Shown here piece after piece: positions 2,621-64,000 of a stretch of 64,000 bases of DNA. How positions within the stretch are numbered: the stretch's first letter is position 1; each line of letters starts with the position of its first letter. The position numbers and the translations under genes were made by a program. The notes under the pieces were generated by a model that was given only the letters and a program-made list of their open reading frames with translations, was not told the DNA's origin and ran no database searches. The stretch is from the IMG/VR virus record IMGVR_UViG_3300029705_006930; one strand, 5' to 3'. The stretch comes from a virus (lineage: Duplodnaviria > Heunggongvirae > Uroviricota > Caudoviricetes).

Positions 2621-3442
2621 CTACCCATTTAATGCGCTGTCAATACTGTCCGCCATCGCATTAATTTCGCCCTGTGTTATTGTAAGGTATGTTTTTGTTA
2701 CGCGCTGGTCACTGTGCTTGTACTTTGCCTGCAAGATGTCCATAACACTGTCGTTGTTCATTGTTTTGCGCGCTGTGTATCCGTATGTTTTGCGCAGTGT
2801 ATGTGTTGCCACGTTCTGTGTGAGGCCCGCCGCCTTTGCACCTTTCTTTAAAATGTCCCACATTTGGTGCAGGCTCATTTGCCCGCCATTGTCACTTTTC
2901 TGGGACTTGATAAGGTAGTCGCTCATTGTATAGTTGCCGTTGAGATGTTCAATGTACATTTCAATGGCTTTTTTTGCGCCCGCTGTTATTTTGTTGCGAT
3001 TGTACTTGCCGGTCTTTTGTTCGTACACATCATAGTAATCTTTTACTGTACCATCCTCATTGAGAACGTCACTGATGCGCGCTCTGAGCAGGTCACTGCC
3101 TCTGTCCCCAATGGTGCAGCCAAACACTACCATCATATAATTGCGGTACTTGTGTCGGCCCCCATGTTCAAGGAAGTAGTTTGCGAGACGCTGAAATTCG
3201 TCCGCGCTGTAAAGAGGCTCTGCACTCTGTGCCTTTTTCACGCCATTGCTTTTGTAAGGCGACGCTGTTCTTGGTGCACGCTGTTTTGGCGCTGGCTTTG
3301 CTGCGGCCATTGCCTGAGCCACTGCATTTGCTATGATGCTCTGGAGCTCGTCCTGTGTCATTTGGAGCTTTGGTGCTGCCGCCTGTGCAGGAAAGTTGAT
3401 TGTATTATTCTGTACGTTTTGTTCTTTTGGCTGAGCGTTCAT
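2621..3442 (-). CDS. int: tyrosine recombinase / phage integrase (small, 273 aa)
   Basis: Catalytic-domain motifs are present: GDRGSDLLRARISDV (Arg), ATHTLRKTYGY (H-x-x-R) and HSDQRVTKTYL (His and the Tyr nucleophile). GGAGG SD. Confidence 0.8.
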   Translation of the reverse strand: MNAQPKEQNVQNNTINFPAQAAAPKLQMTQDELQSIIANAVAQAMAAAKPAPKQRAPRTASPYKSNGVKKAQSAEPLYSADEFQRLANYFLEHGGRHKYRNYMMVVFGCTIGDRGSDLLRARISDVLNEDGTVKDYYDVYEQKTGKYNRNKITAGAKKAIEMYIEHLNGNYTMSDYLIKSQKSDNGGQMSLHQMWDILKKGAKAAGLTQNVATHTLRKTYGYTARKTMNNDSVMDILQAKYKHSDQRVTKTYLTITQGEINAMADSIDSALNG

Positions 3443-3589: not shown

Positions 3590-4200
3590 AAAGGTTGATG
3601 CGGTTGTTGCGGGGCAGTGTGATTTGGCGCAAAATTAGGCGATTTTTAGGGTGTTTGCAATTGTGTAAGGTCTGGTGTTGGAAATTTGGAAAGGTGTCTT
3701 AATGCCTGAATTTGAGGCTCTGGTGGGGTTATTCTATCACAGTGCTGACGCACTGTGGCGTCGCTGTGCTCCTTTATCTTATCAACGATGAAATGTTTGT
3801 TATTATGTTGCGCGAGAGAGGGTGTGGGGCGCGAAATTTGGGGGCCGGAGAGGTGGGAGGCGCGGTTTTGGGGCGAAATTGGGGCCCGGGTGGCCGGGGC
3901 TAAAATGGGCGTTTCCGGGGGTGTTTTGAGGGGTGTTTGGATAAGTTGCACAAAAATAGAAAAGCCACAGCCGGCTCTGTATGGGGCTAGCTGTGGTTCT
4001 TGTTGTTTATGGGCGTGATTTTGTTGTTTTTATAGTGTTTTGTGGCAAAAATGGTGAAAAAATGTGTAAAAAGGCGCGAAAATGCGTCAAAATGTGTGAT
4101 TTTTGATGATTTTTGGGTGGATTTGGTGTGGAATCAGGGCGAAATGGTGTGGAATGTTGTGTTTGGAGGGTGTTGTGGGGGTGAAAAGTGGACAAATATT
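3590..4200 (+). repeat. GT-rich, C-poor non-coding tract with at least 10 degenerate GAAAWTGKG repeats and clustered G4-5 runs
   Basis: Repeat examples: gcgaaatttggggg (3832), gcgaaattgggg (3873), taaaatgggcg (3901), aaaaatggtg (4047), aaaaatgtg (4058), gaaaatgcg (4078), caaaatgtgtg (4088), gcgaaatggtgtgg (4139). Seven G runs of 4 or more fall between 3824 and 3935. Composition is unlike the flanks. Confidence 0.6.
3964..4010 (+). terminator. putative intrinsic terminator inside the GT-rich tract
   Basis: CCACAGC (3965-71) pairs with GCTGTGG (3990-96), followed by ttcttgttgttt. Confidence 0.45.
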
Positions 4201-4390
4201 GCTTTTTATGAGCCGAGAGTGAGATATAGCGACGCGTAGCTTATTATATACATTAAATCTGTCGCAAAGTCAAAATATCCCCCTACGGCAGTTTAAACCG
4301 CTTTATATCGGTAAATATCAACCTTTGTGAAAAGTTGATATTTTTTGTACAAAATTTTTCGATTTTTCAAAAATCGGACGCTTGTTGCTA

Positions 4391-4419
4391 TTGACAATCT
4401 GTCGCTCAGGATTTACAAT
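4391..4419 (+). promoter_or_regulatory. sigma-70-type promoter TTGACA-17 nt-TACAAT
   Basis: TTGACA at 4391-96, a 17-nt spacer, then TACAAT at 4414-19. Confidence 0.6.
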
Positions 4420-4545: not shown

Positions 4546-5241
4546 ATGAAAAAACTCACAAGAAAACAGCTTAAAGCAATAAAAAACACATCAAGCTACA
4601 AATATTTTGAACAATTGAAAACCCTTAAAGGCTCAATGCCGGCAGACAGCAAAAAAACCTATATAGAGCCAAATTCAGACCTTGAAAAATTCGCAAAATT
4701 GCAAGTTATGACCTTAAACAAATATATCCGCCAAGACGGCAAGGGACACAACTTGGCAGCACAAGTTTTGCAAGATTTACAACAGCAAGCTTGTTTGCTT
4801 ATTCTGGAAAACCCTTTAAGCCTTGACTGCTTTACAACAGAACAAGATAAACAGACAGAACAACAGCAACAAGCATTTAAGGCGGTTAAAAATGGTTTAT
4901 ATAGGTATTATTATCACAACTATACAAGCCGCAGCACATCTAAAATTCACAATAACCCGTCAAGTTACATTGCAACAGCTACATATCAAGCAACCGACGA
5001 TATCGGCAAAGATGCACGCGACAGCTATCAAATGGACCTTTACAAATTACATCTGGATGCAATTTTGACAATTTTAACAACGGATGAAAAATACATCTTT
5101 AATGGTTTATTTGTTGAAAACTTAACACAAAAACAACTTGCCGAAAAACTCAATAAATCACAAACTTATGTAGCAAAAACACTTGCAAATATCCGTAGCA
5201 AAATCAAAGCAAATGACCTTGATACACCGATAAACAATTAA
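4546..5241 (+). CDS. sigma-70 region-4-like HTH transcription factor (possible phage sigma factor)
   Basis: Start ATG 4546 after GGAAGG. The C-terminus LTQKQLAEKLNKSQTYVAKTLANIRSKIK resembles a region-4 HTH. Confidence 0.5.
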   Translation: MKKLTRKQLKAIKNTSSYKYFEQLKTLKGSMPADSKKTYIEPNSDLEKFAKLQVMTLNKYIRQDGKGHNLAAQVLQDLQQQACLLILENPLSLDCFTTEQDKQTEQQQQAFKAVKNGLYRYYYHNYTSRSTSKIHNNPSSYIATATYQATDDIGKDARDSYQMDLYKLHLDAILTILTTDEKYIFNGLFVENLTQKQLAEKLNKSQTYVAKTLANIRSKIKANDLDTPINN

Positions 5242-5255
5242 ACCATTATATAAAA

Positions 5256-5284
5256 GGCGGTCACATTTGTGACCGCTTTTTTGT
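5256..5284 (+). terminator. intrinsic terminator
   Basis: GCGGTCAC-attt-GTGACCGC followed by TTTTTT. Confidence 0.75.
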
Positions 5285-5399
5285 TGTTCAGGTTATCAAA
5301 AAACATATAAATTATGTACAATTGTTGTAAAATATGGATAAATAAACCATTTTAAACTTTTTGGTAATATTTTTGAGTTTTCATTCAATATATATGCGA

Positions 5400-5951
5400 C
5401 AGCTAATAGCGGTTAGCGGTTAGGGTGTTAAGCCTTGCCCGCTTGACCGCTTTTTGTCTGTCTGTTTTGCTATGCTTAATTTGTAAGTATAGGACAGGAC
5501 AACCTACCAAGTAGGGACAGCCCAAACGCACAATGTTAGCGTGTTTTGGTTGAAAAAATTTCGGTTTTTTCTTACCTATTGATTGTGTCCCTTTAAAAAA
5601 GGACAGCGGTTCACTCCGCAAGCAAGCCGTCGAGAGATAGTAGATGTTGACACCCTCTTATAAACTGCAAGTAAGGTAGTAAAACAAAAGCCGTAAACGG
5701 CTTGGCTCTTTAAGGTGCCGTTTAGCTAACGGATAAGCGGAAATTGTTCAAAAAAATAATTTTTGTTTGTGAGCGGTTCATTGTGAATATCCAAGGATGT
5801 ACACAACCAAAATGAATTGCCGTCATTACATCTTAGGATGTAAAGGTGGTTACGCAAACGAACAAAAACGAAATTTTCAACAAGAGTATGTGAGAATGTT
5901 TACGATATTTCCAAAGCCGACAGTGAAATGATATATCTGTCGGCTTTTCTT
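5400..5951 (+). ncRNA. candidate large structured non-coding RNA locus (about 0.55 kb)
   Basis: No SD-led ORF. Contains repeated words (AGCGGTT x4, GCGGTTCAYT x2, GGACAG x4) and several local hairpins, and ends at the terminator 5915-5951. Confidence 0.3.
5915..5951 (+). terminator. intrinsic terminator
   Basis: AGCCGACAG (5915-23) pairs with CTGTCGGCT (5937-45), followed by TTTTCTT. Confidence 0.7.
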
Positions 5952-6053
5952 GTAAGCGAATAAGCTCAATAAAAAGTTTGTTCTCTTACAAGATTGTACA
6001 CTCGGTACAGTCTCATTGTAAACATACGCTACATATTCCAAGGAGTAACAATT

Positions 6054-6920
6054 ATGAAACTTAACGAAAAGAAAAACGAAATTTTGTCCGCTATTTCCGC
6101 ACTTAACAAGTTGCTTGTAAACAACGAAAGCAAAAAAGCCGATATCGACAAGGCTCTTGAAAACATCCAGAGCGAAATCAAAGCCTACAATGCCGAAAGA
6201 ACAAGGCTCACTTTTGTTGGGTTGGCTCAGACTGATGAACCTGTTAAAAACGCAATCATTCAGTTGAATTTTGACATCATCAAACTGAAAACAAACAAAG
6301 ACAAGGACACAGATAAAGTGTCATATGAACTTGTAAATGCGAAAAAACAAATCGAATTGCTTGAATTTTCAAAGTATCTCGGTAAAGCAAGTTTTGCAGA
6401 CGAAAACTGGAAATACAAAGTGGAAAAATTCAATCAGCTTATCACATTCAAAGCGGTAAAAGATTTGAATGGCGATATGAACACAATCGCAAAAAGTTTC
6501 TACATCAGCAAACTTGCTGAAAGTGTTGATTTGGGCAAAACACCAACATCAAACACACAGGTTCTCAAACAGTTGCAGACTGTTGTGGACGCAATCATTC
6601 ACGAAAACAAAAGCGAGAATGATGACACAAACAAATTCAAAGTACTGTCTCACGATGTTGCATACATCGTAAAATTGATGTGTAAACGTGCCGACAGCGG
6701 AAAAATCGTAATGCCAAAAGTTTCCTCAATGCACACATTGGTGATGGATGTACTTCACCGTATTGTATGCGACCTCGATTACAAAATCGAATATTCCAAG
6801 AAAAAGGAAGAAGAAACTGCACAGGCTGAAGCCGAAAATGAAATCGAAGCAGCTCAGGAAGAACCAAAAGCTGTAGATGAAAATGCTGAAGAAAAAACAG
6901 CAAAACCAAAAGCGAAATAA
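6054..6920 (+). CDS. hypothetical protein with Glu/Lys/Ala-rich C-terminal tail
   Basis: ATG 6054 lies 7 nt after AAGGAG. Monocistronic, sitting between two terminators. Confidence 0.7.
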   Translation: MKLNEKKNEILSAISALNKLLVNNESKKADIDKALENIQSEIKAYNAERTRLTFVGLAQTDEPVKNAIIQLNFDIIKLKTNKDKDTDKVSYELVNAKKQIELLEFSKYLGKASFADENWKYKVEKFNQLITFKAVKDLNGDMNTIAKSFYISKLAESVDLGKTPTSNTQVLKQLQTVVDAIIHENKSENDDTNKFKVLSHDVAYIVKLMCKRADSGKIVMPKVSSMHTLVMDVLHRIVCDLDYKIEYSKKKEEETAQAEAENEIEAAQEEPKAVDENAEEKTAKPKAK

Positions 6921-15484: not shown

Positions 15485-16174
15485 ATGGACTTAAGTAAAT
15501 CACTTGACTGGTTTAATCCAGACAGCGTTTCGGAACGCATACATATTATCGGATGCGGTAGTGTAGGTAGTACAGTTGTGGAACTGTTGGCAAGATTCGG
15601 TCTTACAAAGTTCACTCTGTATGATTTTGACCTTGTTGAACCTCACAATATCGCAAACCAGATGTTCAGAAAAACGGACATTGGTAAAACAAAAGTTGAA
15701 GCATTGCAGCAGATTGTATGTGAAATCAATCCAGAGGCGGGCAAAGATATTAAACTTGAACCAGAAGGTTGGCACGGACAGCAGTTGTCTGGCTATGTAG
15801 TTCTTGCTGTTGATAGCATTGAATTGCGTAAAAAGATTTGTGAAGGTTTGCAGATGAATATCTTTGTTAAAGCTGTGTTTGATTTCCGTACAAGTTTGCT
15901 CAACGCACAGCATTATGCAGCCAATTGGCAGGACAAAAAACATCGTGATGACCTCATTGCAACAATGCAGTTCACCGATGAAGAAGCTGCGGCTGAAAAC
16001 CCAGTATCAGCGTGTGGTGTAACACTTGGTGTCGCACCAACAGTAAGACTGATATGCACACTAGGCGTAAGCAATATGATGAACTTTTTCAGAGAAAAGA
16101 AATTGAAAAAAGTTGTATTGGCAGACGCATTTAATTTTGATGCTGACCCTATGGTATTACCTATGGGTCAATAA
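15485..16174 (+). CDS. ThiF/MoeB/E1-like adenylyltransferase
   Basis: IIGCGSVGSTVVELLARFGL...LYDFDLVEPHNIANQ is a Rossmann GxGxxG and adenylation motif. Confidence 0.8.
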   Translation: MDLSKSLDWFNPDSVSERIHIIGCGSVGSTVVELLARFGLTKFTLYDFDLVEPHNIANQMFRKTDIGKTKVEALQQIVCEINPEAGKDIKLEPEGWHGQQLSGYVVLAVDSIELRKKICEGLQMNIFVKAVFDFRTSLLNAQHYAANWQDKKHRDDLIATMQFTDEEAAAENPVSACGVTLGVAPTVRLICTLGVSNMMNFFREKKLKKVVLADAFNFDADPMVLPMGQ

Positions 16175-16504: not shown

Positions 16505-17860
16505 ATGGTTTATATCACATATCCAGCACCTAACAAATTTCATCAGATTACATTTGAAGAAATGATGTCGGGCAATGTTAATACAGATAAATTAAGAATT
16601 TTAGGCGGACATAATACGCTTACTTTGCATCTTAACGATGTACCTGCAAACTTAAAAGGTCAGACTTCTGTACGCAAAATGATTGCAGATTTGCAGTATT
16701 TTGTAGGTGTATATTATGACACACTGATGCCACAGATAAAAGAATTTGAGAAGCTTTCAGATGCTCAGCGTCGCAGCGTCAAACAGCGTGACAAGATTGA
16801 AAATTATTTTGAACAGATGGGCGCAACTGCAAATGATGAAGACTTGCAGAAAATCACTGAACAGGTAGATGCGCTGCAGTGTGAAGTTGCAGAACAGCAG
16901 TATAAATATGCTTACTATACATTCGATTTGCGCAAAAGTTCAGCGCCGGAACACATTCCATTGTGGCGACTGCCAAAAGAATACAGACGTACAATCAATG
17001 CTCCGAACATACATCTTAAAAATGCGCTATATGAACTTAAAGAACTGTTTGAAAATATGATGATACGTACATATCATACTGCATCATTTGCGTATGTTAA
17101 ACATCGTGGAACTTTGGATGCTGTAAAACGTCATCAGAGCTGGGAAAGCAAATGGTTTGCAAAGTTTGACTTTTCAGATTTCTTTGGTAGCACAACAATT
17201 GACTTTGTTATGCAACAGTTCTCTCAAATATATCCGTTTAATATGATTTGTGCATATAAAGATGGTAAAGAAGCTCTTTATAAAGCATTGCAGTTGTGTT
17301 TTTTGGACGGTGGACTTCCACAGGGCACACCTATTAGTCCTCTCATCACAAACATAATGATGATACCATTTGACCACGCAATGTCAAAAGCTCTTAAAGA
17401 ATTTAAATATCCAAACAAACACGGTAGTGAACGTTTTGTGTATACAAGATATGCTGATGACCTGCTTATCAGTTGCCGTGTGGATTTTAAAGTGGAAATT
17501 ATTCAGGCATTTATTCTGGAAACTTTAAAATCAATGAATGCGCCTTTTAGCCTTAACGTTAAGAAAACTCGTTACGGTTCTAGTGCAGGTAGCAACTGGA
17601 ATCTTGGGGTGATGCTTAACAAAGACAATAAAATTACAATCGGTGCAGAAAACAAGCGCAGACTTAAAGCTTCTTTGAATTCATTTATCCTTGATATGAA
17701 GAATGAAAAACCTTGGGATATTTCTATGGTGTATAGACTCAGAGGTCAGATTTCTTATTATCGTAATGTGGAAAGGGAAGCAACAAATAACATCATTGCA
17801 GCGATGAACACAAAATATGGTGTTGATGCAGAAGCAATGATGAAATCTATTATAAGTTAA
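16505..17860 (+). CDS. reverse transcriptase, retron/UG(DRT)/Abi-like, with about 190-aa N-terminal extension
   Basis: KFDFSDFF, LPQGTPISPLITN, YTRYADDLLIS, KKTRYG, LGVML and a thumb-like RLRGQISYYRNV occur in order. GGGAGGA SD. Confidence 0.85.
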   Translation: MVYITYPAPNKFHQITFEEMMSGNVNTDKLRILGGHNTLTLHLNDVPANLKGQTSVRKMIADLQYFVGVYYDTLMPQIKEFEKLSDAQRRSVKQRDKIENYFEQMGATANDEDLQKITEQVDALQCEVAEQQYKYAYYTFDLRKSSAPEHIPLWRLPKEYRRTINAPNIHLKNALYELKELFENMMIRTYHTASFAYVKHRGTLDAVKRHQSWESKWFAKFDFSDFFGSTTIDFVMQQFSQIYPFNMICAYKDGKEALYKALQLCFLDGGLPQGTPISPLITNIMMIPFDHAMSKALKEFKYPNKHGSERFVYTRYADDLLISCRVDFKVEIIQAFILETLKSMNAPFSLNVKKTRYGSSAGSNWNLGVMLNKDNKITIGAENKRRLKASLNSFILDMKNEKPWDISMVYRLRGQISYYRNVEREATNNIIAAMNTKYGVDAEAMMKSIIS

Positions 17861-55426: not shown

Positions 55427-56749
55427 ATGAGACAAATATTAAATATGAGAGAAACATTAACGCGAGTAAGTTTTTTATTTAAGACTATTGCGAGTACACC
55501 AAGGACAACTGAAAAGAAACGATTGTTGCGTTATATCAACAGCTCAGAACCAGAGAATGTATGTGAAATGTTTCTGTATACTTTACGATTTTTATTGGAT
55601 AACAATGTAACAACAGGTATCGATAAAAAGAAACTCAAAGCTCAAATTAATATGCCTGATATTAATTTTCCAATGAAATGGTCACATATGTTGGAATATA
55701 TCAAAGAAAACAATACAGGAAGGCATGAAGATATTCGCAGAGCACAGCTCTTTATCGAAGATAATCCCGAGAATGCGGAATTTATTGCTGATATTATAAC
55801 AAAATCATATAGGTTAGGACTGACAGCCAAAACAGTAAATGAAGTTTATGAAGATTTTATTCCTGTTTGGTCAGTACAGCAGGCATATCCTTTGGAAAAA
55901 TATCCGCTTAAGGACGGAGAATGGTTTTCTTTATCACAAAAGCTTAATGGGTTCCATGCCTCATATTACAAGGGTAAATTAATAAGCCGACAAGGAAAAG
56001 AAATCAAAGGTTGTAAGCACGTTATTAACGCAATAAACAACTTTAAACTTCAAGATTTCTTTATTGATGGCGAGCTTATCCGGCGTAATGATATTGAACC
56101 TCATCTCTCAGACGAAGAAAATTTTCGACAGACTGTTTCAATTGCGAATTCTGATTCTGACGACAAAACAGACCTGTGTTTTATTTATTATGATATCATT
56201 CCAGCTGATGATTTTGACAAAGGCAAATGTGAAATAACATATCGCCAACGTCTTAATGACATGCATAAATTAAACAGTATAATTCTGCAGACTCCATTTT
56301 ATAAAACGTTTCATATGGTGAAATGGTTTTATCACGGCAATGACCAAAAGAAAATTCAGTTTTGGCTTGATTATGCAAATGAAAATGATATGGAGGGTCT
56401 TATGTTAAATAAGGATACTGTATATCAATGCAAACGTAATTCAGGCATTTTAAAGGTAAAAAGTTGGAAACATTGTGACCTTAGAGTAACGGGCGTTGAA
56501 GAAGGCGATGGCAAATACAAAGGAACCCTTGGAAAACTGATTGTGGACTATAAAGGAAATACTTTGGGATTAAGTGGAATGAGCGATGAGGAACGTTATA
56601 TATTTTGGAATAATCCACAGGACATAGTTGGGAAGATTGTGCTCGTTAAATATAAACAGGAAACAAAAGACAAAACAGGTAAACGTAGTTTGCAGTTCGC
56701 AACCTACCAAGGTGTTAGAACTGATAAAGATGAAGTCAGCTACAATTAA
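55427..56749 (+). CDS. ATP-dependent DNA ligase
   Basis: Motif I SQKLNGFH, motif III FIDGELI, motif IV EGLMLNK, motif V ILKVK, plus an OB domain. Confidence 0.8.
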   Translation: MRQILNMRETLTRVSFLFKTIASTPRTTEKKRLLRYINSSEPENVCEMFLYTLRFLLDNNVTTGIDKKKLKAQINMPDINFPMKWSHMLEYIKENNTGRHEDIRRAQLFIEDNPENAEFIADIITKSYRLGLTAKTVNEVYEDFIPVWSVQQAYPLEKYPLKDGEWFSLSQKLNGFHASYYKGKLISRQGKEIKGCKHVINAINNFKLQDFFIDGELIRRNDIEPHLSDEENFRQTVSIANSDSDDKTDLCFIYYDIIPADDFDKGKCEITYRQRLNDMHKLNSIILQTPFYKTFHMVKWFYHGNDQKKIQFWLDYANENDMEGLMLNKDTVYQCKRNSGILKVKSWKHCDLRVTGVEEGDGKYKGTLGKLIVDYKGNTLGLSGMSDEERYIFWNNPQDIVGKIVLVKYKQETKDKTGKRSLQFATYQGVRTDKDEVSYN

Positions 56750-62419: not shown

Positions 62420-64000
62420 ATGAAAAGAGTTGCATGTTTATATCGTGTTTCAACAAAAGGACAAGTTGATAAAGATGACATTCCTATGCAGCGTAAAGAA
62501 TGCAGTGAATTTATTAAAAAACAGGGATGGCAATTAGTCAATGAATATTATGAAAAAGGTGTCAGTGGCTATAAAAAATCAGCAGACCAACGTGATGTAT
62601 TGCAAACAATCAAGAATGATGCTTTAAATAATCAGTTTGACATTCTGCTTGTCTATATGTTTGACAGATTAGGACGACGCGAAGATGAAACTCCATTTAT
62701 TCTTGAATGGTTTACAAAACAAGGTATAGAAATGTGGAGTGTTAAAGAAGGCCAACAGTCCTTTTCACAACATATTGATAAATTACTTAACTACATACGT
62801 TTCTGGCAAGCCAGCGGTGAAAGTCATAAGACTTCTATGCGTGTTGATAGTAGCCATAGGCAAATGGCTGAAGAAGGCAAATTTAGAGGCGGCGATGCAC
62901 CATATGGATATATGCTTGTAAAAACAGGTGTATTCAATAAAAAGAAAAAAGAATTATTAAAATTAGTCATCAATACCATTGAGGCCCCTATTGTGCAGCT
63001 TATATATAAGTTAGCTTTGGAGGGATATGGTCAAACAAAAATAGCCAAATATTTAAATGAGCACGGCATAAAAACTCGAAACAATAAAATGTGGAATAGT
63101 GGTACAATTGGTTATATCCTAAAAAATCCAATTTATAAAGGTTATCCTGCATATAGAAAGAAAACAGGACAAGGAGAGGGAGTTCATAATTTGCCAAGTT
63201 CAGAATGGATATTATCTTCGGCACAGCAAATTGAGCTTGTTATAATTTCAGAGAATGATTGGGATAGAGTGCAGGAATTACGTACACAACATCATAATTC
63301 TCCTAATCATAACACAATCACAAATTCACCATTATTATTAGTTGGGTTGACTTACTGTGGATGCTGTAAAAGTCCATTGACTACCACTTATTCATATAAG
63401 TACAATAAAGATAAAACAAAGGTATATCAGCGACCAAAATATCGTTGCTCTGGTAAGGCAAATGCAAAAGCACTCTGTGATGGACAAACCGTTTATAGCG
63501 CAGAGAAATATGAAAAAGCTGTTTTAAATCAGATTGATATTTATTTAAATAAAATCAAAAATACACCACAATCTCAACAAGATACAACAGCTAATGATTT
63601 TCAAAAAAATATTAAATCTCTCGAGCATAAATTAGCAAAAATCAATAATATGATAGAAATATTATCTGATGAAGTTGGTAATGCCTTGATAGGAGAAAGT
63701 CGATTTACACCAGAAGTTTTGGCAGAACAAATTAACAAAAAACAACAAGATAAAATTTTAATACAAAATGAACTTGACAAAATAAAACAAGAGGCAGATA
63801 ATTATAACCATGAACAAATCAATACACAGCAATTAAACCAAGTTATTCCAATCTGGAAAGAAAGGTTTGACGGATTTTCAACTGAAAAGAAAAAACGTTT
63901 ATTGCGTATCTTGATTTCACGCATTGAATTTAATAGAGATACAATTATTATAGATTTTAATACAACTATTCAATGCTTTTTAGATGCTATCACTGCATAA
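62420..64000 (+). CDS. large serine recombinase (integrase type)
   Basis: N-terminal resolvase domain CLYRVSTKGQ...DILLVYMFDRLGRR, a recombinase domain, the zinc-ribbon Cys pairs GLTYCGCCKS and YRCSGK...CDG, and a C-terminal coiled coil. The stop falls at 63998-64000. Confidence 0.9.
   Translation: MKRVACLYRVSTKGQVDKDDIPMQRKECSEFIKKQGWQLVNEYYEKGVSGYKKSADQRDVLQTIKNDALNNQFDILLVYMFDRLGRREDETPFILEWFTKQGIEMWSVKEGQQSFSQHIDKLLNYIRFWQASGESHKTSMRVDSSHRQMAEEGKFRGGDAPYGYMLVKTGVFNKKKKELLKLVINTIEAPIVQLIYKLALEGYGQTKIAKYLNEHGIKTRNNKMWNSGTIGYILKNPIYKGYPAYRKKTGQGEGVHNLPSSEWILSSAQQIELVIISENDWDRVQELRTQHHNSPNHNTITNSPLLLVGLTYCGCCKSPLTTTYSYKYNKDKTKVYQRPKYRCSGKANAKALCDGQTVYSAEKYEKAVLNQIDIYLNKIKNTPQSQQDTTANDFQKNIKSLEHKLAKINNMIEILSDEVGNALIGESRFTPEVLAEQINKKQQDKILIQNELDKIKQEADNYNHEQINTQQLNQVIPIWKERFDGFSTEKKKRLLRILISRIEFNRDTIIIDFNTTIQCFLDAITA

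Follow-up and report, generated by a model that had tools for sequence, protein, structure and literature searches.

The stretch of viral DNA analysed here, 64,000 nucleotides of IMG/VR record IMGVR_UViG_3300029705_006930 (hereafter the window), carries a gap of ~770 nucleotides (nt; 5282-6053) between two intrinsic terminators, flanked on its left by a gene for a helix-turn-helix (HTH) protein and on its right by a gene for a 288-amino-acid (aa) protein. The terminator that precedes the gap and ends the HTH gene (5252-5284, + strand) consists of a 13-pair hairpin (5252-5281) and a T run, and is kept in all lineages. The right-hand gene starts with an ATG at 6054, led by the Shine-Dalgarno (SD) sequence GGAG at 6041-6044. 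No credible open reading frame (ORF) separates the first terminator from this start codon, the longest being 72 aa on the - strand and 44 aa on the + strand, neither of which is kept in two related lineages. A strong terminator at the 3' end, with 11 perfect pairs at 5913-5947 and then TTTTCTT, completes a locus whose limits had been recognised in a preliminary description, where it was proposed to encode a large structured non-coding RNA of a phage. This proposal is corroborated by folding z-scores, compensatory changes, strand asymmetry and the lack of a conserved ORF, and we conclude with high confidence that 5396-6011 on the + strand is a conserved, highly structured non-coding RNA element.

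Evidence for a structured RNA on the + strand

The segment 5400-5951 folds on the + strand with an energy of -172.9 kcal/mol (z = -6.1; 0 of 100 shuffles are as good), compared with -149.1 kcal/mol on the - strand, and the orthologous stretch of locus L012 reaches z = -8.8. A search of IMG/VR for close relatives by either flanking protein found none. A look-up of the exact protein yielded 22 contigs, and the 8 fetched loci that span the gap are all 100% identical there, so that they are of no use for covariation. The 288-aa protein has 23 homologues, at 31-99% identity, and the loci share a layout in which a recombinase gene (tyrosine or serine type, - strand) is followed by a gap of ~1 kb, an HTH gene (+), a gap of 700-1190 nt and a gene for a protein of 260-305 aa (+). 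The lineages that can be aligned with the gap of the window are L012/L013/L061 and M, the latter a sequence joined from L063 and L011 of the same sample through an exact 29-nt overlap. Nucleotide blocks of the gap are 70-85% identical between the window and these lineages, and the flanking proteins 50-67%.

Covariation was counted over five sequences from three lineages (the window; L012/L013/L061; M), brought together in alignment A8. The RNAalifold consensus holds 222 pairs, of which 54 are changed on both sides, against 20.8 +/- 3.3 in shuffles (0 of 500 reach 54) and 5-11 when the partners are slid by 1-3 columns, a count to be read with the structure being derived from the same alignment and the lineages being three only. 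Paired cells amount to 92.5%, as opposed to 86.4% in the shuffles and 38-47% with slid partners. The strongest-supported helices are those at 5396-5463, 5480-5493/5657-5671, 5743-5884 (with hairpins at 5782-5805 and 5820-5849), 5913-5947, 5949-5992 and 5993-6011. The comparison with related phages suggested in the preliminary description has yielded compensatory changes across all three lineages under shuffle controls.

The RNA can be assigned to the + strand on the basis of the excess of G-U over A-C (25:5 in the window) and of the folding energies: the consensus energy is -133.8 on the + strand against -91.2 on the - strand, and the minimum free energy of single sequences is 34-50 kcal/mol lower on the + strand in all three lineages. 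A conserved small-protein ORF, which had been named as the alternative to an RNA, was sought in the gap across the three lineages and none was found.

Architecture of the element

The extent first given to the element, 5400-5951, does correspond to a structured region, but the conserved structure is longer, running from ~5396 to 6011 and past the terminator. It is preceded by a conserved block at 5312-5401 (+ strand), made of columns that are invariant in alignment A8 and including ATGTACAATTGTTGTAA (5314-5330), the arrangement TTGGTA-17 nt-TTCAAT and CATTCAATATATATGCGACA (5382-5401). From its sequence, this block is a candidate for the promoter, a regulator site and the 5' end of the RNA, and no good match to the sigma-A consensus was found within 5312-5401. 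The motif ATGTACNNTTGTTGYAA (5314-5330) has one good copy in the window and two tandem direct copies with a period of 20-23 nt in L012 and M; it could be where the adjacent HTH protein binds. Both motifs of the block are unique in the 64-kb window, and a role for the block as a general phage promoter was rejected since it does not recur elsewhere in the window.

The RNA itself begins with a 5'-terminal hairpin (5396-5463; helices H6/H7 of the RNAalifold structure), which contains the tandem AGCGGTT AGCGGTT, ends in UUUUUGUCUGUC and has a folding free energy of -21 to -25 kcal/mol in each of the three lineages. Next comes a central domain (5469-5683), in which a long-range helix between ~5469-5493 and ~5657-5683 encloses internal hairpins. 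This domain is the part most variable between lineages; within it, helix H9 (5480-5493/5657-5671) has 7 of 12 pairs changed on both sides and 98% of its cells paired. The hairpin TGTCC/GGACA (5586-5605), noted in the preliminary description, is confirmed here as UGUCC-N10-GGACA and is succeeded by AGCGGUU and UCGAGAGAUAGUAGAUG; the sequence of the whole unit (5586-5645) was compared with the Rfam consensus of RAGATH-16, which is considered below. Similarly, the hairpin GCCG-TAAA-CGGC (5690-5701) forms the centre of AAGCCG-UAAA-CGGCUU, which together with the block CGGCUUGGCUCUUUAAGGU that follows it (5688-5716 in all) is invariant in the three lineages. The CGGCUUG of this hairpin (5697-5703) lies at -357 from the ATG and within an invariant 19-mer. 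CUUGG of the invariant block CGGCUUGGCU (5701-5705) is complementary to the hairpin-loop sequence CCAAG (5791-5795), or to CCGAG via a G-U pair, so that a tertiary or kissing contact is possible on sequence grounds.

In the 3' domain (5743-5884; helices H22-H26 of the RNAalifold structure) a closing helix surrounds twin hairpins. The first, AUAU-CCAAGG-AUGU (5787-5800), is at -267 from the ATG; the second (5820-5849), at -228, has an outer stem CCGU/GUGG and an inner part UUACAU-CUUAGG-AUGUAA (5826-5843), its loop being CUUAGG in the window and CCAAGG in the other two lineages. Helix H26 has 7 of 11 pairs changed on both sides (ACAUC/GAUGU, AUGCC/GGCAU, AUAUCC/GGAUAU). An intrinsic terminator or attenuator follows at 5913-5951, composed of AAAGCCGACAG-N13-CUGUCGGCUUU and then UCUUGU. 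Its stem is altered in lineage M (CCCACAGG/UUGUGGGC), and GGCUUUUCUUGU is invariant. Beyond it stand two further conserved hairpins: H30 (5949-5992), with 4 of its 17 pairs changed on both sides, and H31 (5993-6011), with 5 of 7 (UGUAC/GUACA, CAAGC/GCUUG, UGUGC/GCACA) and a conserved U-G wobble.

Repeated words had also been noted in the region. AGCGGTT is indeed present four times on the + strand (5408, 5415, 5605, 5772), and GCGGTTCAYT twice (5606 and 5773); GGACAG, given as fourfold, occurs only three times in the region (5492, 5515, 5601), the fourth instance being GGACAA. The entire window holds 6 copies of AGCGGTT on both strands, against 3.9 expected. Although these words are present in the window, they are not conserved, and the AGCGGTT copies are replaced in the L012 lineage, where AGCGG/CCGCU of the 5' hairpin becomes AGCAAG/CUUGCU. 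Since the word is lost and the pairing kept, the repeats can be regarded as by-products of helices and not as iterons; for the most part they reflect lineage-specific helices and not a conserved repeat system.

Relationship to RAGATH-16

The RNA had been likened to the ROOL/GOLLD class, and a scan against Rfam (ROOL, GOLLD, HEARO, raiA and others) had been suggested. No family was matched, and the assignment does not hold. Rfam 15, which includes ROOL, GOLLD, HEARO, raiA and OLE, gave no match at gathering score in the whole window; the 20 matches at E <= 10 in 5200-6100 are terminator-like noise only and include none of these five; and in 16 related loci none of ROOL (RF03087), GOLLD (RF01998), HEARO, raiA and OLE was found. 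The hammerhead, twister, twister-sister, pistol, hatchet, HDV-like (hepatitis delta virus-like) and hairpin ribozymes gave no match either, at E <= 10 in 5200-6100 or at gathering score in the 16 related loci. As far as covariance models tell, ROOL, GOLLD, HEARO, raiA, OLE and the small ribozymes are thus excluded. A blastn search of the gap against phage and plasmid collections had no match, and DNA pattern scans with CGGCTTGGCTCTTTAAGGT (viral and metagenome) and TCAATATATWWGCGACARCT (viral) returned chance matches only, in unrelated genes or without flanking similarity.

The same Rfam scan of the 16 related loci revealed another family. RAGATH-16 (RF03047, 72 nt), reportedly from the 2017 candidate set of Weinberg et al., was located within the orthologous gap of L022, L055, L046 and L043 and further upstream in L047, with scores of 66-85 bits (gathering score 65.6 bits). 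It is one of ~33 orphan RAGATH RNA classes of unknown function (PMC11061315), and our search of the literature found no paper naming it. An independent scan of IMG/VR by the RAGATH-16 sequence pattern provided 37 sites (L072-L108), on phage contigs of 21-133 kb, 36 of which exceed 60 kb. In all 34 testable sites, that is, those with enough downstream DNA, a homologue of the 288-aa protein is encoded downstream on the same strand, its start lying 356-536 nt from the motif in 33 cases and 1959 nt in one. RAGATH-16 is therefore tightly linked to the 260-305 aa gene family, a 'GKTPTSN' gene context that is established in this analysis and is not part of Rfam. The window RNA has the same context, being directly upstream of, and co-oriented with, a 260-305 aa 'GKTPTSN' phage gene.

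The defining core of RAGATH-16, made of a P1 hairpin, GCGUCG, a P2 enclosing a P3 hairpin with a GAAUUAAGC loop and a J strand with AUAGUGAAAA, could not be detected in the window. The Rfam model has no match there at gathering score and is absent from the list at E <= 10 for 5200-6100. A broader core model, R3, built from 11 cores (alignment A13) and run with filters off, finds L042 (3e-5) and L025 (1e-4), and gives noise only (<= 9.6 bits, in the wrong places) in 5000-6300 of the window, L012, L061 and L063. Both models being blank, the window RNA is not RAGATH-16 by its defining core. By eye only, 5586-5645 resembles that core (P1, GCGUCG, UCGAGAUAGUGAAAAU) at the expected distance from CGGCUUG, a likeness to which the covariance models give no support. 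In a more distant group of loci (L015, L017, L019, L022, L023, L025) conservation reaches ~220 nt or more past the 72-nt motif, and nhmmer with the core of this second group sees only the AUCCAAGGAU hairpin in the window group.

The 3' modules present a different picture. Model R1, built from the 3' domain of the window group, finds the orthologous place on the + strand of L025 (E = 8e-5) and L019 (0.034), with weaker matches in L028 and L036, likewise just upstream of the gene; R2, to which L025 and L019 were added, additionally finds L042 (0.02). R2 has no matches in the 34 canonical RAGATH-16 loci because their twin hairpins, which these phages do carry, stand only a few nt apart, compared with ~25 nt in the window. 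Over 70 distinct loci, 95 CCRAGG cores lie on the + strand 100-700 nt ahead of the gene, and 90 of them are flanked by three or more additional pairs, versus 37 of 375 elsewhere; the hairpins have 34 different stem sequences and a density of 1.26/kb in the leaders versus 0.036/kb elsewhere. Two or more such hairpins occur in 43 of the 70 loci under a 3-bp rule and in 24 under a strict 4-bp rule. Their positions are comparable between lineages (-267/-228 in the window, -262/-221 in L012, -262/-218 in L042, -255/-204 in L022), and the window accordingly shows two stem-C[CU]NAGG-stem hairpins on the + strand, the pair that most loci carry 180-340 nt ahead of the gene. CGGCTTG occurs in 43 of the 70 leaders, mostly at -300 to -420, and is 12-fold denser there (1.17/kb versus 0.098/kb elsewhere); the copy in the window falls within this range. 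Lastly, 53 of 69 loci have a G+C-rich hairpin with a U-rich tail 21-190 nt ahead of the gene, the one of the window being at -108.

These modules define, in this analysis, an extended 'RAGATH-16-linked leader' family. Since the window RNA keeps the 3' modules and differs in the 5' half, it can be considered a divergent member of this larger unannotated family, and very probably a divergent relative of the longer RAGATH-16-bearing RNAs of the same gap. The two kinds of RNA occupy the same slot, upstream of the same 260-305 aa gene and on the same strand, in the same kind of element, large phages of Clostridia. They share modules outside the Rfam model (CGGCUUG at about -360, the twin hairpins at about -180 to -340, the G+C hairpin with a U-rich tail), but the 72-nt core is undetected in the window and its two sister lineages, and the window has instead a 5' hairpin of ~70 nt and a central domain of ~215 nt, besides the wider spacing of its twin hairpins. 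A further orphan motif, RAGATH-4 (RF03153, 105 bits), fills the same slot in L044 (2691-2823), just upstream of the homologous gene, and several types of structured RNA seem to find a place in front of this gene family.

Genomic context

The window very likely derives from a large temperate-type phage of Clostridia. Its source contig is of 208 kb, and sequences of the relatives were found within metagenome-assembled genomes of Clostridia (Eubacteriales, Oscillospiraceae, Christensenellaceae). From 4.3 to 64 kb, every ORF of at least 100 aa taken as a gene lies on the + strand, and this array includes genes for Sak4-like protein, DnaB, primase, exonuclease, DNA polymerase, ligase, ribonucleotide reductase and a large serine recombinase. 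The left end carries, on the - strand, a tyrosine recombinase gene and a ligase gene. The window thus has two recombinases, tyrosine (2621-3442, -) and large serine (62420-64000, +), and two ATP-dependent DNA ligase genes (110-1411, -; 55427-56749, +); the recombinase beside the locus in relatives is of tyrosine or serine type. A reverse transcriptase of 451 aa (16505-17860; RVT_1, E = 3.7e-18; PHROG polymerase/RT), encoded ~10 kb downstream of the RNA, adjoins a gene for a ThiF-family protein (15485-16174). A faint match to a YonO-type RNA-dependent RNA polymerase was seen in one relative. Clusters of transfer RNA genes lie 3-5 kb downstream of the RNA in L019 (10471-10674), L022 (10409-10780), L023 (4463-4983) and L047 (5699-6278), and none was found in the window.

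The HTH gene (4549-5241, +; 230 aa) is the first gene on the + strand and the conserved left neighbour of the RNA. Its product has a C-terminal HTH of LuxR/GerE or sigma-70 region-4 type: the window protein matches Pfam Sigma70_r4 below threshold only, the orthologues match GerE (1.6e-8) and Sigma70_r4_2 (1.8e-8), and the profile compared with PDB retrieves FixJ/NarL/VpsT and sigma factors (4e-6 to 2e-4). These similarities make it a candidate phage activator or sigma-like factor. A near-consensus sigma-A promoter (4391-4419, TTGACA-17-TACAAT, 11 of 12 matches) stands upstream of this gene and is predicted to be, likely, the early promoter of the rightward array. Between the tyrosine recombinase and HTH genes, ~600 nt of non-coding DNA (3600-4220) are G/T-rich and C-poor, with a GC skew of +0.4 to +0.64. 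This composition recurs at the equivalent position in L061, L015, L019, L022 and L017, blastn detecting no similarity between the stretch and its counterparts in these five lineages, and in L015, L022 and L017 a C-skewed stretch then follows. The G/T-rich stretch could be an attP site, an R-loop or G-quadruplex region, or a - strand RNA.

The gene for the 288-aa protein (6034-6920 including the ribosome-binding site, RBS; + strand) adjoins the RNA on the right as its conserved partner. The protein matched no Pfam or PHROG family, and domain searches revealed no recognisable RNA-binding or nuclease domain. The AlphaFold2 model has a mean predicted local distance difference test score (pLDDT) of 83.7 and resembles uncharacterised phage proteins only, so that the fold is confidently predicted, of an unknown type. 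The RBS, UAUU-CCAAGG-AGUA (6034-6047), has the same stem-CCAAGG-stem form as the twin hairpins, whose loops hold an SD-like RAGGA; this hairpin form of the RBS is not kept in the two sister lineages.

Discussion

We tentatively propose, giving the idea slightly less than an even chance, that the RNA is a long leader or attenuator working in cis where the 58-kb rightward gene array begins, the twin hairpins being the binding site of a factor. The conserved block that closely follows the HTH gene would drive transcription from about 5396, and the RNA would fold during synthesis. Most transcripts would end at the terminator 5913-5951, producing a stable RNA of ~550 nt comparable to the lambda pR'-tR' 6S transcript. 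Recognition of the twin CCRAGG hairpins by a factor, which may be the downstream protein, the HTH protein or one of the host, or else the RNA itself, would permit read-through into the 288-aa gene and the 58-kb array of early and replication genes on the + strand.

Several observations point to a leader, among them the course of the array, whose genes all run on the + strand from 4.3 to 64 kb and, so far as scanned, include those of phage replication. The modules are on the same strand as the gene and keep a near-constant register to its start codon across very divergent phages, and a hairpin with a U-rich tail shortly before a gene occupies the usual place of the expression platform in Firmicutes leaders. 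The constant register, the co-orientation and the terminator-like hairpin before the RBS together correspond to the architecture of Firmicutes attenuation leaders, for which reason a cis-acting leader is favoured. In addition, no sigma-A-like promoter was found on the + strand between the terminator and the 288-aa gene; since the covarying hairpins at 5949-6011 lie beyond the terminator and the interval before them is too short for a promoter, selection appears to act on read-through transcripts.

Several considerations weigh against the cis-acting leader. We infer the start of the RNA, its end and the read-through alike, and the promoter in the upstream block is not recognisable as sigma-A. 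No alternative (antiterminator) pairing with covariation was found: the sole candidate, a strand swap between H18 and the terminator (hairpin 5688-5703 versus the terminator arms; 5698-5703 with 5914-5919), does not persist in lineage M. Being canonical and strong, the terminator is of the kind expected to close a stand-alone RNA, and Rfam classes RAGATH-16 as a small RNA (sRNA) gene. In L017 and L019 the RNA and the gene are separated by a small ORF, and in L047/L101 by one on the - strand, so that the register to the gene is not absolute. The covariation within the window's own group comes from three lineages and a structure predicted from the same alignment, and the central domain pairs less well in the window (82% of all its cells) than in L012 (100%). 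Moreover, 550 nt is very large beside known antitermination RNAs.

The proposed leader can be compared with known systems. The lambda late leader (Q gene, pR', 6S RNA, tR') has a similar succession of a regulator gene, a promoter, a leader ending in a strong terminator and a long co-directional array. The put RNA of HK022 forms two adjacent stem-loops upstream of terminators, as the window RNA likewise places twin hairpins upstream of a terminator, and the EAR RNA of Bacillus eps operons lies between early operon genes. These leaders measure ~70 nt (put), ~120 nt (EAR) and 194 nt (lambda 6S, essentially unstructured), whereas that of the window is of ~550 nt and elaborately folded, without sequence or model similarity to them; unlike in put, EAR and lambda, antitermination is here only what we infer. 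The PyrR binding loop, the ribonucleic antiterminator (RAT) of BglG/SacY and the HutP leaders place hairpins with invariant loops and stems that covary ahead of an intrinsic terminator and an RBS; ARUCCAGAGAGGYU, the PyrR site, is a UCC...GG hairpin. The window RNA shares this order of conserved hairpin, terminator and RBS, but without homology, with no antiterminator alternative found and with a much longer leader.

The principal alternative, possible although doubtful in our estimation, is that of a stand-alone, trans-acting large non-coding RNA ending at 5951, either an RNA partner or scaffold of the 288-aa protein in a ribonucleoprotein (RNP) or an early decoy or anti-defence RNA. The canonical conserved terminator at the 3' end and the 5'-terminal hairpin, which is typical of stable Firmicutes RNAs, would suit such a molecule, as would the obligate co-occurrence of RNA and protein in the 34 testable sites, the confident but unknown predicted fold of the adjacent protein and the position of the locus in an early region, where anti-defence functions cluster. 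There is also a precedent in RAGATH-18, whose 73-nt Rfam motif is the core of a more extensive guide RNA that the adjacent TnpB of IS607 binds (PMC11061315). In both cases a short Rfam motif covers just the core of an extended conserved RNA tightly associated with one neighbouring protein family. The RAGATH-18 RNA is, however, downstream of its protein gene and its protein is a RuvC nuclease, whereas the window RNA is upstream of a gene whose product has no recognisable domain, RNA-binding or nuclease domains included, and no guide-like variable segment was seen in it. The covarying hairpins at 5949-6011 past the terminator and the failure to find a promoter for the gene rather suggest co-transcription, and the constant register to the ATG is better suited to a leader. 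In its most specific form, which we regard as unlikely, the RNA of the window and of the RAGATH-16 phages would be the dedicated RNA subunit of a new phage RNP with the adjacent 260-305 aa protein, the twin CCRAGG hairpins serving as binding sites. By analogy, another orphan RAGATH class would then follow the pattern of RAGATH-18 and TnpB, with a role at the start of infection such as host takeover or anti-defence.

A self-cleaving or RNA-processing ribozyme that cuts the early polycistronic transcript is improbable. RAGATH neighbourhoods are enriched in twister, hammerhead and related ribozymes. The RAGATH candidates came from gaps near genes that accompany self-cleaving ribozymes (PMC5737381), a few of them are ribozymes (PMC11061315), and highly conserved unpaired blocks such as CGGCUUGGCUCUUUAAGGU within a complex fold would be in keeping with catalysis. 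Nevertheless, no known small ribozyme is matched in the scans reported above, the size is far beyond that of known small ribozymes, and a 3' terminator is at odds with self-cleavage according to the authors of the motif survey (PMC5737381).

An element acting at the DNA level, whether an origin with AGCGGTT iterons, operator palindromes of the HTH protein or hairpins of single-strand DNA, is very improbable. The clustering of four AGCGGTT copies, the near-palindromic character of several hairpins (which symmetric operators would keep too), the adjoining HTH gene and the direct repeats at 5314-5330 and in orthologues could be cited in its favour, but AGCGGTT is lost in the L012 lineage with the pairing kept. 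In addition, two hairpins of one phage, L012, have different stems and the same loop (GUAUCC/GGAUAU, AUGCC/GGCAU), which indicates RNA or single-strand hairpins and not the operators of one repressor. The strong strand bias (G-U to A-C and the 34-50 kcal/mol advantage of the + strand), the conserved G-U wobbles and the long-range helices spanning 190 nt are equally at variance with a DNA element, and no AT-rich unwinding region or skew switch centred on the gap was found.

Membership of the ROOL/GOLLD large ornate RNAs has scarcely any likelihood. The size class (~550-620 nt), the phage or prophage setting in Firmicutes, the high structure content and the 3' terminator are similar, but the scans that covered these families matched none of them, the conserved motifs are other ones, and the CCRAGG twin hairpins and CGGCUUG tie the window RNA to the RAGATH-16 context instead. 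To our knowledge, a strict link to one protein-coding gene, such as the window RNA has, is not a feature of these RNAs. Weakest of all is a hidden small protein gene such as the ATG-led 44-aa ORF at 5797-5931. Lineage M does keep the matching frame open over 58 codons, with 50% identity across 38 aa, but L012 and M have GGATATT in place of the ATG, L012 interrupts the frame (20 codons), AAGGA abuts the ATG without a spacer, peptide similarity extends to all six frames because of nucleotide conservation, and the region is the best-supported set of helices.

Whatever its function, the window RNA is a previously undescribed variant of the orphan class RAGATH-16, and is neither ROOL nor GOLLD. The 72-nt Rfam motif of this class proves to be only the 5' piece of a structured RNA of ~400-650 nt that, in all 34 testable sites, accompanies a single uncharacterised protein family, the phages being large ones of Clostridia from gut and rumen, and the hallmark of the family is the stem-CCRAGG-stem pair, the CGGCUUG block and the terminator-like hairpin. 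Variants of the window type have swapped the RAGATH-16 core and kept the rest, which points to the 3' modules as the functional heart of the RNA. The extent of RAGATH-16, its obligate protein partner and its twin-hairpin hallmark may outweigh the finding in the window itself, and they make its function testable, through RNA-protein binding and terminator read-through. Were the RNA an antitermination leader, its size would be exceptional and an early operon of 58 kb would be under its control; were it part of an RNP, it would represent a new phage RNA-protein machine.

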